This document shows positions 2,948 to 52,410 of a stretch of 64,000 nucleotides of DNA, piece by piece (positions within the stretch are counted from its first letter, which is position 1; each line of letters starts with the position of its first letter). The notes beneath the pieces are model-generated. The model was not told the DNA's origin, did no database searches, and was given only the letters and a program-made list of their open reading frames with translations. The translations under genes and the position numbers were made by a program. Source of the DNA: Eledone cirrhosa (taxonomy: Eukaryota); the NCBI GenBank assembly GCA_964016885.1, contig OZ024741.1:137392001-137456000 (forward strand). The letters run 5' to 3'.

Positions 2948-3094
2948 CATGTAAAGTTATATTTAAAATTGTTGGGTTACAACTAGTAAATATTTATAAC
3001 TGATATAAAAGCACTCGACAAATACTTGGAGTATATTTACAATATTAAATAAATGGAAAACTATATTTATAAAACCATATTTATTTAATATTGT
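2948..3094 (-). mobile_element. Family Y PLE-like 3' fragment in (TA)n
   Basis: Reverse complement of 46381-46520; homology stops at the HHR stem I 3' strand. Confidence 0.7.
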
Positions 3095-3562
3095 ATATAT
3101 ATATATATATATATATATATATGTGTGTGTGTGTGTGTGTGTGTGTGTGTGTGTGTGTCTATACATATATATATATATATATACATAATATATATACATA
3201 TATATATATACATACACACATATATATACATACACACATATATATACATATATATATATATACATATATATATATATACATATATATATATATATATACA
3301 TATATATATGTATACATTCATATATATGTATATATATATATATATATATATATATATATATATATATGTATATATATATATATATATATGTATATATGTA
3401 TATATGTAATATATATAATCATAACATTAAGTAGGATTTCCTGCTGTTTTGTACGGAATTAACTGGAATCTTCTGGATTCAGATAAGAGACATAAGAATG
3501 GATCAATTAATGTATAAGTAGCTAGCAAAATACGCCCTTGACTCTCCCTTCTTCCCCTATAT

Positions 3563-4404
3563 ATATGAAAGGATTCAGGACGGCTGAGCTCCGGCCGTTT
3601 CGACAGCTAGATCCGAACTAAAGCGCCAGTATTTAGGATAAATTTAGGATAAAAAGCAAGAGGAAATGGTAGATTGGTGTTTGAAATAAATAAATAAATT
3701 AGTGAACGATGCACTTTTCCCGGCCCATAAGGCAAATGATAACTAGATTTCTCTACGAGGAGGGGAAATCGTAATAAATTATAAATGCTTAGTACTATAG
3801 CAAATTATAAAGAAAAACCAAATTAAGAAAAACATAAATACACTATGTTATTCTCTTTGACTTAAAAATTCTCTTGTATTTTTTTCTCTTGTTTTCTTTT
3901 CCTTTTTCTTTTATGAATCAAATGTAGCTAAGTACAATGTCATTTTTACAGATTAGAAATATTGATAAGGAAAAATTCGCTCCTAATAGCGTGTGCGCGC
4001 GACTGACTATCTTAACAGGTCAATCAGCCTACCCACCCCTCTTGCTTTTTATACTGCATAGCCCCTTTCATTGCCGCCATGACTGTAATAAATATGGATA
4101 GTTCAAGACATTTAGCAAGACTAAACCAGCCATTTGAACAAGGTAACCCCCCCCCCACACTCCGACTACTAACCATTCTCGGAGAAAAATAAAAAAACAA
4201 GAGAAATTTAAAGATTTTTTTGCTTTGACTTCTGCCCATATATGGATTATACCCCTTGATAAGTTCAGCGAGATTCCCGCCGTTCGAATTCTGGTGCTTT
4301 AGTTCGGAGCTCAGCTGTTGGGGTCCTGAATCTTTTCATATTAGCCACTCTACTACGCTGGTGGGTTGAGGTCTACCCTATTTTTACCACACCCTATCTG
4401 ATAT
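3563..4404 (+). mobile_element. Family X fold-back element; inverted arms 3563-3629 and 4291-4341; HHR remnant 4251-4324
   Basis: ACCCC-TTGATAA-GTTCAGCGAGAT...GCTCAGCTGTT-GGGGT. The GAAAC segment is deleted between CGGA repeats but retained in the inverted arm (ATCTAGCTGTCGAAACGGCCGGAGCTCAGCCGTC). Confidence 0.65.
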
Positions 4405-4522
4405 ATATATATATATATATGTATGAATGAAGTGATTCCGTCAGAAAGGTAAACGAAAAAAGAGTGCTCTATGTAGGCTACAGAGCTTATTAGTTATGTA
4501 ATAAACAACATAAGATAATTAT

Positions 4523-4578
4523 TTCATTTACCAGTGGTTTCTTGAAAGCAGATATATGTTTTCAGTCGTCAGAATGAA
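4523..4578 (-). ncRNA. Type I hammerhead ribozyme (inverted copy of 6385-6442)
   Basis: Reverse complement of the 6385 motif with a 2-nt deletion in stem II. Confidence 0.7.
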
Positions 4579-49403: not shown

Positions 49404-49483
49404 GTTTCCTGATGAGTTCGAAGCTCGAGATTTTATCCTTAATAGGATATTTCCGAAAGGGAATGAAACCCTGGGGTAGAAAC
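49404..49483 (+). ncRNA. Type I hammerhead ribozyme with long stem II
   Basis: Stem I GTTTC/GAAAC; CTGATGA; stem II GTTC..TATCCT-TAAT-AGGATA..GAAT; GAA; stem III ACCC-TG-GGGT; GUA. Confidence 0.7.
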
Positions 49484-51360
49484 GTAATCCTGGTATGTGT
49501 ATATGCATTTTTTCTTCTAACTCTAATTTTATACCTAATTGTGTATGGTTGACGGTATATTTAATCGATTTCCACGTGCTATTGAAATGTTGGGTAAATA
49601 TTCTATAGCGATTGGTCGCGAATAGATTGCTGTCGTTTATTTATCTACTATTTCTTCATAGGTGCCTTTTAATCTTATAGCCTGGTCTAATTGATTTTTT
49701 GTGTGGTTAATTATGCTAATTGGGAGAGGAAATGGTGTATATATATTATCAAATGATTCTATGGACATACTTTATAGTATATATATATATATATATATAT
49801 ATATAACATTATGAAGAAATGTATATTAACAGTCTTTCAAAGTAATTAGCCATATTTTAGTGTATTGATTTGTTGTTCTGTCTGTGTCACTCTTTCTTCA
49901 CACTCTCTCTCCCTCTCCCTCCTTCTTTATATATATATATATGTGTGTGTGTGTGTGTATGTATATATATATATATATATGTGTGTGTGTGTGTGTGTGT
50001 GTGTGTGTGTGTGTGTGGAGAGATCTGAGTACAATCAGGTTATGATGTAAGCATGCCTACTCTCATTTTGACTCTGTCTACTTTCCGACAATGTATTCCA
50101 CCAATATTGTCTAGAACTCTGAAACCATATTTTGTTTTTATTTCACAGTAAACTGTCATACGCACCTGCGTTTGTGTGAAAACATTGATGCTAAAAACAA
50201 GCTGTCGTGCACAGGTGTAAGATGAAATTATATATTGTTGCTATGTCATGGGTTATAAAAAAAATACCAAATCATACTCAGTTGTCCACCAGAAACTAGT
50301 CACCTGATTGTGTTTGTAAACTCGAAAAGTAATAGTTAAGGGTTAAGTCAATATATTAGAACTAACTGTCAACTATACGATTTGGCGAGAAAGATTTTTC
50401 ATCACACGTATCACCTTCAATTTTCCTTCTTGTAAGAGACCAAATGTGAAGAGAACATTGGAATAAATCTAGCTAACTCAGGGTTTCTCTTACCAAATAT
50501 ACCATACAGATATAACTCCCCCTCCAAATATTATGGTCCATCTGGTATCTTACCACTCCTTCTATGTTTTATATATATATATGTCATGGGTTATAAAAAA
50601 AATCCCAAATCATCGTAACTTATGTGATGGATGTAAAAACATTTTCTTCCTTTTTCTGAATGTGAAAATGGTGGTGGATGCGAAAACTATAACTTTCTTT
50701 TTCTTTTTCTGCACACATACTTTTTTGATCTACAAAAAATATTTACCACTACAACCACCATAATACTCTTGCTTACCGGCTTAAAGTGCTTACATTACAG
50801 GTAACACCTTGCCACACAATAATCGTATATAAATGAGACACACTTGCATGCTCCATGTGTGACTAACGCATACACTATCTACTAGATCTGATTATCAAAC
50901 TATCCCCTTACATTATCTGTGTTATCTGCCGCATGTATTTTAATTTTAATTTTAATTTTGATTTTGATTTTAAATTTGAATTGCTGTACAAATATAATAT
51001 AGTATAATATATGTCACTCCACTGTACATAAATATATATATATATATGTATCTGCATCTCTCCTGCGTTGGATAGGAAGTCAATTATTGTACAAACATTG
51101 AAAAATGGTCCGAAGACTCCAAGCCTAGGTTTGGAAGAAACAATTGTAAGTGAATAAATGCTTTGAACATAGCTTTGATTCTTGTGAATTCTCTCTCTCT
51201 CTCTCTCTCTCTCTCTCTCTCTCTCTCTCTCTCTCTCTCTCTCTCTCTCTCTCTCTCATGTATATATATATATATATATATATATATATATATATATATA
51301 TATATATATATATATATATATATATATATATATATATACATACATATATATATATATATA

Positions 51361-51404
51361 TACATGTTACCAGTAGCACTCAAGAGTGCTACTGGTAACA
51401 TGTA
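51361..51404. repeat. Perfect 21-bp-arm hairpin at the (TA)n boundary of an unidentified interspersed repeat (~51384-52003)
   Basis: TACATGTTACCAGTAGCACTC-AA-GAGTGCTACTGGTAACATGTA. Confidence 0.9.
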
Positions 51405-52052
51405 ACCCACTACAACCTGTCGCATGGTCGGGTCGTCGGCGACTAAACCGGCAACCCCACCAAGTTTACTTGGTGAGGAGGGTGATATTAGACACCCTAG
51501 CAGGACAAAAACAAAACCTGACAAAGAGCGGAAGAAGTCATAAGGGTCAACGGCCATCCAAAAGTGTGTAAATATGTATATATATATATATACATGTACG
51601 TATGTATGTATATGTATATGTGTATATACATGGGTGCATGTGTATGTATATGCGCGGGTACATAGAAATAGTCGGGATGGACACCCGATCGCGTGGTTAA
51701 ACTACTGGGAGTGAAGGACCCCTAGCCTTTGTCAGGGCATTCTTCTAGGAGACGGCAACTCAGGAAACTGGGATAACTCCGATATAAAACCTGTGGCTCA
51801 GTAGTTACCGATGATGTTGATCTTTTGTTCTTTTCGGGTTATAGCTACTGTCGCTCAGAGAGTGGGATTGGCTCAGCGCACAGTCTTCCCTCACTTTAAA
51901 AAATATCTTCATGCACAGGCATTGCACGAGAGAATTACTTAATAATAATTAAAAATGGTATATCATGCAATGGCCATACTCGATAACGAGGGGGCAGCCA
52001 TCATATATATATATATAGAAATATATATATATATATATATATATATATAAAT

Positions 52053-52410
52053 ATAACGAAGGAAGTGTGGTAAGGAACCAGGTGGACCATAACGCACCAG
52101 AGCACTCGATACTTAGGGTAGTAGAGTGGGTAACAGGTAAAGAGTCAGGACCCCGACAGGTTAGTTCAGATCTAGCTGTCGAAACGGCCGGAGCTCAACC
52201 ATCGGGGTTCTGACTCTTTTCTTATATATATATATATATATATATATATATATATATATATATATATATATATATATATATATATATATATATATATATA
52301 TATATATATATATAACGAAGGAAATGTGGTAAGGAACCAGGTGGACCATAACGCACCAAAGTACTCAATACTTAGGGTAGTAGAGTGGTTAATAGATCCT
52401 ACTCGTTCGT
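52053..52410. mobile_element. Two family X fold-back copies (52053-52225, 52312-52410) in (TA)n
   Basis: ATAACGAAGGAARTGTGGTAAGGAACCAGG long end; inverted short end. Confidence 0.8.

Follow-up and report, generated by a model that had tools for sequence, protein, structure and literature searches.

Hammerhead ribozymes were described in the pseudo-LTRs of Penelope-like elements by Cervera and de la Pena in 2014 (PMC4209133), and whether they cut in living cells has been a question since. In that article the minimal hammerheads of these elements are given low activity in vitro, evidence in vivo is stated to be absent, and a stem I of two base pairs is described for the Penelope element of D. 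virilis. In the Poseidon element of Anolis, whose in vitro mechanism was the subject of Frangieh et al. 2024 (PMC11167929), the hammerhead was dispensable for insertion in vitro and, according to the accessible part of the text, no RNA-seq reads start or end at the cut. Craig et al. 2021 (PMC8557442), dealing with the Hydra and Neptune clades, called hammerhead function unclear. Related systems include the R2 retrotransposon with its HDV-like ribozyme (Eickbush et al. 2013, PMC3774820) and the animal non-LTR retrozymes, which self-cleave in vivo (PMC7229834; bioRxiv 10.64898/2026.07.22.740005). The main texts of the open-licence literature yielded no report of Penelope insertions beginning at the hammerhead site.

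We analysed a stretch of 64,000 nucleotides from Eledone cirrhosa (contig OZ024741.1; hereafter the window) and followed its repeat families through the genome. In two families, designated X and W, a small class of insertions of ~90-100 bases starts, with one-base sharpness, at the predicted hammerhead cut, as would be expected if reverse transcriptase (RT) ran off self-cut RNA, a reading to which we assign a probability of roughly three in four. Such a base-exact peak of insertion ends constitutes in vivo evidence drawn from assemblies alone, and the counting of junctions can be repeated in any Penelope-rich genome, where it ranks motifs, minimal and variant cores included, for bench tests. 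The footprint also sets a limit, in that 3' stubs normally arise without cleavage.

As in PMC4209133, the hammerheads are of type I and lie at the repeat of the element. W has in common with the minimal form a bulged base after position 9, a G-C pair at the base of stem II and a palindromic stem III stub, while X shares its U3-A8 core with the Cercyon elements of Schistosoma but departs from the motifs described there in its long stem II and in a stem III of 5-6 pairs directly upstream. That study states evidence in vivo to be absent; here insertion ends mark the cut site. Poseidon is similar in its two fixed internal starts with an optional tail, AT-rich target, extension of both strands and use of uncut RNA as the main template; here, however, a minority of genomic copies start at the cut, and the text of PMC11167929, in the portions at hand, reports none such. 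With R2 the present families share 5' junctions that follow the ribozyme cut, untemplated bases and microhomology joints, but every full-length R2 element owes its 5' end to the cut (PMC3774820), whereas the hammerhead of the present families sits close to the insertion's 3' end, and the cut marks a few percent of copies or less. C-terminal GIY-YIG motifs, (TA)n targeting, inverted 5'-truncated partners and a tail at one end link X and W to the clades of PMC8557442, the accessible text of which draws no relation between truncation points and the hammerhead. Retrozymes, finally, resemble these stubs as repeats that are short and non-coding, carry a type I hammerhead and are linked to Penelope machinery (PMC7229834). 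The retrozyme arrangement of tandem repeats, each with a hammerhead and with no coding parent, was found in neither X nor W, whose stubs are not tandem and are joined upstream to coding Penelope sequence; those starting at the cut represent the 3' cleavage product only, without the ribozyme.

Parent elements and their hammerhead motifs

Every fragment cited in an earlier note on this DNA represents the 3' end of a Penelope-like element and was inserted in (TA)n, and fixed 3' ends in TA runs are common to all copies. In X these ends are of two kinds, the short end lying near +17 and the tail end near +97 (+1 being the base directly after the predicted hammerhead cut), and 46 of 48 X arm pairs consist of one tail arm and one short arm, head to head, which is the anatomy of a Penelope insertion: an inverted 5'-truncated partner, and a tail at one end only. 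The parents carry remnants of GIY-YIG (X and W) and of a Penelope-type RT (W). Reading in broken frames upstream of X at four loci (L109, L115, L086 and L172), in comparison with PMC8557442 as far as available, revealed the Hydra-clade motifs, namely a GIY-YIG-type domain, a CxCX5C linker, and CxxC plus CxH around E and N, with no CCHH; a Pfam scan of two short pieces of the X parent gave no match. Upstream of W lie the Neptune-clade motifs (RT, a CX2-5CxxC linker and GIY-YIG with CCHH, with a (TA)n target), the Neptune-type coding remnants being found ~1.5 kb upstream of the W motif at L306, L307, L312 and L314, and the W parent gave an RVT_1 match (E 3e-5) that lies below the curated cut-off. 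Placed by motifs only, X would belong to Hydra and W to Neptune. Naiad as the parent of W was ruled out by domain order only.

The X motif has the features of a type I hammerhead of the U3-A8 variant, with the core U-U-G-A-N-A-A, a variable position 7, and GAAA following. T12, G13, A14, A16 and A17 are invariant in 9/9 copies, position 7 is G, C, A or T, and C3 occurs in one copy. When the structure that we proposed was scored on these nine related copies, its three helices, with G10.1-C11.1, were paired in 92% of 165 cells, against 27-50% in slid controls, and compensatory changes in stem II altered four pairs on both sides, again among nine related copies only. Self-cleavage of X after GUC is predicted, and the +1 peak described below bears on it indirectly. 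A search for the canonical CUGANGA core in X returned chance joints (84 matches against 9 in the control, heterogeneous) or nothing, because the X core is the U3-A8 variant. A 22-base deletion has removed GAAA from one X copy of the window (4251-4401, plus strand), which still has stem I, its U3-A8 core (4256-4262) and the 5' strand of stem II.

W displays the minimal form: a CUGANGA core, the bulged base, G-C at the base of stem II, GAAA, a palindromic 15.2-16.2 and no stem III, while its stem I consists of two pairs beside the core rather than four to five. The core is intact in 87 of 92 copies, with A (57) or G (30) at position 7. The reference copy of the family, a 3' end from uncut template that spans the hammerhead (2115-2917, plus strand), shows homology to other copies as far as -711. 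Its minimal hammerhead occupies 2798-2827 on the plus strand, with the core at 2798-2804, a bulged A, a four-pair stem II, GAAA at 2818-2821, GUC at 2823-2825 and +1 at 2826; an initiator-like motif lies upstream (2714-2719, plus strand), its A at 2716 corresponding to -110. Cleavage of W as a dimer is a predicted possibility on which the +1 peak, once more, bears indirectly. Single-strand folding did not favour the X and W motifs over shuffles (z -0.85 to +0.22), and in an Rfam scan of the window the 150 of 261 matches listed were all microsatellite-driven, with no hammerhead family among them.

Insertion fragments within the window

The earlier note had proposed, from six fragments, that short insertions begin at the predicted cut. 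Its clearest case stands: a solo insertion of 98 bases from an older X subfamily (6503-6600, minus strand; given there as 6498-6600) has TA runs on both sides and extends from +1 at 6600, which abuts a TA run, to the fixed 3' end of the family, with no partner arm within the next 800 bases. It is the sole clean footprint within the window. None of the other five cited fragments is diagnostic: they form one arm of a compound insertion, join through microhomology or start off-site. Two X ends had been correctly positioned, at 2 nt short of the site and 3 nt beyond it. The first belongs to a long-tail arm (48416-48510, minus strand) that starts at +3 with a 3-base filler and has a short-end partner on the opposite strand (48563-48627, plus), 24 TA units beyond 48510, that reaches ~-46; the second belongs to a long-tail arm starting at -3 (52056-52157, minus), directly joined to a short-end partner (52158-52222, plus) that reaches ~-43.

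A family Z arm (24974-25086, plus strand) had been placed at the GUA site of its family, and such a site is indeed predicted, but 4-5 bases of the junction also occur in the flanking piece, and this microhomology leaves the start ambiguous over -1 to +3; the upstream core, mutated, lies with the GUA site in the partner arm (24787-24897, minus). The family Y fragment (2948-3093, minus; previously 2948-3089) does end inside the 3' strand of stem I, yet off the cut, its sense arm running from +4 in an 8-base microhomology to the fold-back (+4 to +12). For the W fragment (31751-31844, minus; previously from 31750), the proposed start at -6 is reached only with one base taken as deleted; the match is continuous from -3, off the cut, and the 5' flank is non-TA.

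Three further anchored X arms in the window, uncited by the earlier note, start at -41, +7 and +17. A typical X unit (44905-45108) joins a long-tail arm on the minus strand, stopping at -41, head to head with a short-end arm on the plus strand; in another head-to-head unit (48924-49085, both strands) the tail arm picks up at +7 past an internal deletion; and a tail arm with a short fold-back (52315-52409, minus) starts at +17. One of six anchored X arms in the window thus starts at +1. Window counts alone are within chance, whereas the genome-wide counts for X and W exceed it.

Junctions around the predicted cut genome-wide

The junctions counted were those that are AT-flanked and near the predicted site, and tallies for X, W, family T and the stem II control were made by hand from match listings. 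Genome-wide, 20 of 39 AT-flanked W junctions in the interval -7 to +5 fall exactly at +1 (19 events; Poisson p ~5e-14) and seven more fall at +1 with one extra T, the other 11 positions totalling 12; the identical GTC three bases upstream has one junction. In young X, 27 of 69 direct junctions are at +1 (25 events; p ~6e-13) among the first 100 of 211 matches listed, a set in which +2, +3 and +4, likewise G, hold 1, 2 and 2. The mean per neighbouring position is ~3 in young X and ~1 in W. In older X the 16 events at +1 form the highest single class (p ~1e-5; first 100 matches listed), although the profile is flatter and the class at -2/-1, with 10 among the matches listed, comes close. From +1 to the fixed 3' end run 17 of the 20 X loci and 20 of the 20 W loci examined, with unrelated flanks and from several subfamilies, and at one locus (L216) both head-to-head arms begin at +1. 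At +1 junctions the insertion is often preceded by one to three additional bases (T, A, G).

Clustering at the site had been suggested for four families, and it holds for X and W. Junctions of Y at the cut are ambiguous because its stem III is TA-like (a plus-strand copy at 46317-46520 covers the entire hammerhead, with its core at 46332-46338 and a predicted AUA site in that stem), and those of Z, with four copies only, because +1 and +2 are A and T. A further family, T, in which a hammerhead-like motif has a GUU triplet (27135-27175, plus; second copy 26891-26912, minus), shows no +1 peak, with 2 of 90 rows representing one locus pair. A wide gapped junction pattern counted some loci repeatedly on one strand, and distinct loci were used; among the 39 listed, the TA-microhomology positions +7 to +9 and +13 to +15 are, per position, at least as populated as +1, so that +1 is the peak among non-microhomology positions and not the commonest direct junction.

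A peak of this kind could arise if uncut RNA, folded into stem III or the core, halted RT, and if the halt fell at +1 by chance. The 5-6 pair stem III of X lies right upstream and, among the matches listed, some X breaks fall at -3, -2 and -7 as well, and short fold-backs gather at -1/+1 in young X (11 of 25). The sharpest peak, however, is that of W, which has no stem III, while family T has a stem III yet no peak, and an identical heptamer at the base of the longer X stem II likewise gives none (2 of ~23 among the first 100 matches listed; Fisher p 0.009). An RT stop at a helix is expected at -1/-2 or +6, and not one base inside stem I, where +1 lies. Stalling at stem III, the counter-explanation that the earlier note itself had named, fails on these grounds, and stalling at any part of the motif seems unlikely.

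Still less probable, in our estimation, is that the RNA was cut and rejoined by a 2'-5' link, or otherwise blocked at C17, with RT stopping at +1 on a continuous molecule. The same base position would result, and ligation and circular RNAs have been reported for animal hammerhead repeats (PMC7229834, in the part available), but many +1 junctions carry extra bases that look untemplated, which is consistent with RT running off an end, and nothing here points to circles.

An artefact of CpG decay at C17, of microhomology to the TA target, or of daughters or duplicates of one truncated master is largely refuted, and we consider it very improbable. There is a CpG at the site in both positive families and none in the negative family, T precedes +1 in 14 of 27 X rows (matches listed) and 13 of 20 W rows, and the loci examined include three duplicate pairs. 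Decay is nevertheless too rare: among intact sequences, T stands in place of C17 in 3 of 109 X arms and in 1 of 73 W copies. No peak is seen at two other CpG sites used as controls, one at -3 in W and the other at -23 in X (for X, among the matches listed). Moreover, the G at +1 has no microhomology to TA, the 12 young X events preceded by A or G alone remain significant (p ~2e-7, matches listed), and the +1 copies derive from several subfamilies, with differing fillers and flanks.

None of the 8 junctions of one X subfamily, the core of which looks intact, is at +1, against 27 of 61 in the others (post hoc, p 0.02; matches listed). This counts against the footprint reading.

Uncut templates and the rarity of the +1 class

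The +1 class amounts to ~2-3% of W (20-27 copies against 857 W anchors) and ~0.2-1% of X (~57 strict +1 matches, where another X anchor gives 32,345). In unbiased samples, none of 90 W copies begins exactly at +1, and of 132 X arms one does, and the cut is not, as in R2, the 5' end of most insertions; that short insertions begin at the cut is, on these counts, an overstatement. Sequence from upstream of the site is present in 86 of the 90 W copies and in 126 of the 132 X arms, and 37 of 42 Y arms retain core-side sequence. That self-cleavage sets the 5' end of short insertions generally, as a normal step of the cycle, is what R2 elements would suggest (PMC3774820), and the +1 peak is present in X and W, but for 3' stubs the idea is refuted by these copies, ribozyme mutants insert normally in vitro (PMC11167929), and we deem it the least probable of the alternatives. 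What endures of the earlier proposal that self-cleaved RNA is reverse transcribed is a sharp class of 5' breakpoints, one base wide, at +1 in X and W throughout the genome; it comprises a minority of copies, and most start elsewhere. 3' stubs normally originate without cleavage, which is a side route to them.

Most X arms end between -35 and -48, around an initiator-like motif (-41), and come from uncut RNA. The idea that X -41 is a 3' splice site was dropped, as no shared upstream exon is joined to that position. W breakpoints were called with a second anchor, owing to a W subfamily with a 14-base deletion, and 5 of 89 unbiased copies begin within -3 to +1 of the A at -110, the likely transcription start. 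The putative transcription starts at X -41 and W -110 are read from the initiator-like motif together with the clustering of breakpoints.

Run-off from self-cut RNA can be accommodated in a simple scheme. The Penelope protein would nick TA DNA and begin copying inside the RNA at fixed points, as the in vitro work suggests (PMC11167929, in the portions available). Two stopping places are preferred among the copies, one a broad zone around the initiator-like motif (at -41 in X and at -110 in W) and the other only one base wide, at +1; we infer that both are RNA 5' ends, the common one a transcription start and the rare one the 5'-OH end of self-cleavage, with the extra bases at +1 junctions probably representing untemplated additions at the template end. 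The likely start of X lies downstream of the catalytic core, which would leave most X RNA unable to cut in cis, and that of W appears to lie upstream of the entire hammerhead motif; such a difference would account for a +1 class that is ~ten times commoner in W than in X. On this scheme cleavage does take place, though only now and then, and insertion does not depend on it.

A more inclusive reading, which we advance tentatively and at somewhat less than even odds, is that Penelope insertion ends constitute a fossil 5'-end map of germ-line RNA, recording for each family a start and a hammerhead cut, the ratio of which would measure in vivo activity. Even the minimal hammerhead, which lacks stem III and has a stem I of two pairs, may then cut in the Penelope ribonucleoprotein by dimer or protein help, cutting would take place in two separate clades, and the X start inside stem II may switch the ribozyme off on the copied RNA.

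Hammerhead-bearing repeats and their copies in the window

The source assembly of the window represents a 3.0-Gb, (TA)n-rich animal genome. The window contains 18 CUGANGA...GAAA spans, and its self-comparison reveals several dispersed families within TA runs. The families treated here are 3' ends of Penelope-like elements with hammerhead motifs; such elements, their motif types and their insertion layout have been described before. Family X, of Hydra type, has 32,345 exact genome matches to a 29-base 3' anchor, and its long copies hold the whole motif, which consists of a stem I of five pairs, a U3-A8 core whose position 7 varies, a long stem II and the GAAA, together with a stem III of 5-6 pairs and a GUC triplet. 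Pairing is retained in 92% of 165 helix cells and four pairs are altered on both sides (9 copies), while single-strand folding of X was no better than that of shuffled sequences. The U3-A8 core is known from Schistosoma elements (PMC4209133), and the broken frames ~1 kb upstream of X carry the endonuclease motifs that PMC8557442 lists for the Hydra clade. Family W, of Neptune type, has a minimal hammerhead that lacks stem III and whose stem I is two pairs long; its core is intact in 87 of 92 copies, its anchor has 857 exact matches, and Neptune-type RT and/or GIY-YIG frames lie ~1.5 kb upstream in 4 of 10 extended loci.

X possesses two fixed 3' ends, and a tail arm and a short arm stand head to head in 46 of 48 arm pairs. 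This is the known Penelope arrangement and fits the two internal start points and both-strand extension seen in vitro (PMC11167929). In the stem II control search described below, an altered stem II arm upstream of stem III is common to 22 rows among the 100 matches listed on one contig; this uniform group is a separate subfamily or a recombinant, possibly with a different core.

Numbering from +1, the first base 3' of the predicted cut, the X copy that an earlier note placed at 6498-6600 does begin at the site: the insertion spans 6503-6600, starts at +1 directly against a TA run, and no partner arm lies within the following 800 bases. The X arms at 48510 and 52157 stop at +3 and -3, as claimed, but both belong to head-to-head units whose partner arms reach about -46 and -43, so that each of these insertion events also copied RNA from upstream of the site. 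Three additional anchored X arms start at -41, +7 and +17, and the +1 share in the window is thus one in six anchored arms. The family Z copy at 24974, read as starting at its GUA site, has 4-5 bases in common with its flank and its core in the partner arm; the family Y fragment at 2948-3089, described as ending at the stem I 3' strand, is a fold-back joint via eight shared bases (+4 to +12); and the W copy at 31750-31844, described as starting 6 nt upstream of GUC, has its 31844 end at -3. A fold-back and, after it, a 49-base tandem array occupy 23081-23530, and the end of the array unit recurs as the Z junction flank (24961-24976).

Genome-wide junctions at the predicted cleavage site

The genome was searched for a 17-base anchor from +5 preceded by 11 unconstrained bases and, before these, seven A/T bases; rows were tallied by hand. 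For the young X subfamily there were 211 matches (control, 10); from the 100 listed, 25 short fold-backs, four repeat slips and two noise rows were excluded, leaving 69 direct junctions. Among these matches listed, 27 junctions fall at +1, against 6, 3, 0, 4, 7, 2 and 4 at -7 to -1, six further at -2 with an extra T, and 1, 2, 2 and 5 at +2 to +5. W gave 39 matches in all (control, 0), distributed as 20 at +1, seven with an extra T, two at -1, three at -2, one at -3, one at -6/-7, three at +2, one at +3 and one at +5. Among 100 of 109 older X matches listed, there were 16 events at +1, five with an extra T, 10 at -2/-1 and 1-6 elsewhere, a flatter peak than in young X, which counts against reading the peak as a mark of self-cleavage. 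Removal of duplicate loci left 25 young X (among the matches listed) and 19 W events at +1. Poisson tests that compared +1 with the average over the remaining positions, and that set extra-T rows against the peak, gave p of about 6e-13 for young X, 5e-14 for W and 1e-5 for older X (X values among the matches listed). Fetched loci were mostly solo stubs running from +1 to a fixed 3' end between unrelated flanks (17 of 20 X; 20 of 20 W, of which 17 lie at +1 and three have an extra T). Two fetched X loci contain tandem pieces that each restart at +1, as does an inverted arm in one of them; these look like repeated template jumps off cut RNA ends.

No other result speaks as strongly against hairpin stalling as the W peak, which lies in a second clade and lacks a stem III. 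The heptamer that precedes the X cut is found again at the base of stem II, followed by G as at the cut; there the matching base was hit by 2 of about 23 direct junctions among 100 of 1,419 matches listed, mostly edge rows or a separate subfamily (Fisher p 0.009 against X +1, among the matches listed). In W, the identical triplet three bases upstream has one row. A GUU triplet cuts poorly, and family T, with GUU and a poor stem II, has +1 in 2 of 90 rows, from one locus pair. The base before the cut, C17, has become T in 3 of 109 X arms that are intact and in 1 of 73 W copies, so decay cannot yield the +1 rows that follow a T; the rows that follow an A or a G reach significance by themselves. 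Two observations weigh against self-cleavage. Junctions at downstream positions that offer TA microhomology are as frequent per position as those at +1, and the X subfamily in which stem I is followed by a T-rich stretch has +1 in 0 of 8 direct junctions among the matches listed; its core looks intact, and it may differ in ribozyme activity.

Usual 5' ends and a possible mechanism

The claim that short insertions start at the cleavage site thus holds as a one-base, genome-wide peak in X and W, but most copies begin elsewhere: the observation is partly confirmed, and the interpretation was right in kind and overstated in scope. Counted over AT-flanked copies with an exact anchor, and hence as a minimum, the +1 class comprises 20-27 of 857 in W (2-3%) and, in X, ~57 strict matches (27% of 211) against 32,345 for another anchor, ~0.2%. 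Where loci were sampled via the 3' anchor, either sequentially along the genome or at regular spacing, 49 of the 99 X arms that were anchored (the six window arms included) begin at -45 to -31. Among 140 arms whose stem III is intact, 127 end at -23 to -58 and 13 extend past -70. When 132 X arms were seeded at +5, with partner-arm joints counted, one began at +1, four at +2 (two through 4-base microhomology), one at +5 and 126 farther upstream. Among 90 W anchor loci none starts exactly at +1, three start at +2 to +4, 86 span the site and one is of another family; 37 of 42 Y arms retain core-side sequence. Since most X, W and Y copies run upstream of the site, the normal template is uncut RNA, as it is in vitro (PMC11167929).

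The modal X break is the A at -41 of a hexamer present in 8 of 9 long copies, in both subfamilies, and displaced by a small deletion in the ninth. W has a similar motif with its A at -110, and the starts of 5 of 89 copies lie between -3 and +1 of that A (p about 5e-4 relative to a flat rate, although TA microhomology may contribute). Both motifs are initiator-like. An internal promoter with an initiator and a downstream element has been reported for Penelope (PMC2377424). The X stop zone near -41 is likely the transcription start, although it may instead reflect stem II stalling or two cDNAs joined there.

From the observed positions and counts we infer that the protein would begin copying at fixed internal points and run to the RNA 5' end. 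In most cases copying would finish at the transcription start or stop prematurely; occasionally it would reach an end made by self-cleavage, which gives a 90-100 base stub from +1. Such stubs often bear one to three additional bases, a feature also of R2 junctions (PMC3774820). The likely start would lie downstream of the core in X, which would limit cleavage in cis to read-through RNA, and upstream of the whole motif in W; this difference would account for the X class being roughly tenfold rarer. Searches of open-licence papers turned up none that describes Penelope insertions beginning at their hammerhead cut. PMC4209133 states that in vivo evidence is absent for these hammerheads, PMC8557442 describes their function as unclear, and PMC11167929 saw no RNA-seq ends at the cut site.

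Other elements in the window

An apparently intact non-LTR element lies on the plus strand at 58075-63478, with a 410-aa first frame and a 1150-aa frame containing Exo_endo_phos, RVT_1 and zf-RVT; a decayed relative occupies 9232-14377. A Penelope GIY-YIG fragment on the minus strand (25624-26280; Pfam E 6e-4, below cut-off), with close relatives at no fewer than 10 fetched loci, is flanked by inverted hammerhead-bearing repeats (25313-26329). Additional hammerhead-like cores, several forming inverted pairs, occur at 28039-28063 and 30324-30348, 4538-4572 and 6391-6427, 45192-45238, 49409-49458, and 31299-31323. A dispersed repeat of ~190 bases occurs 15 or more times in the window (372-674, 1286-1831, 17440-17636 and about ten more places). 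Long trinucleotide arrays at 46946-48034 and 53145-53676, which in several phases can be read through as open frames 300-400 codons long, are probably simple repeats.
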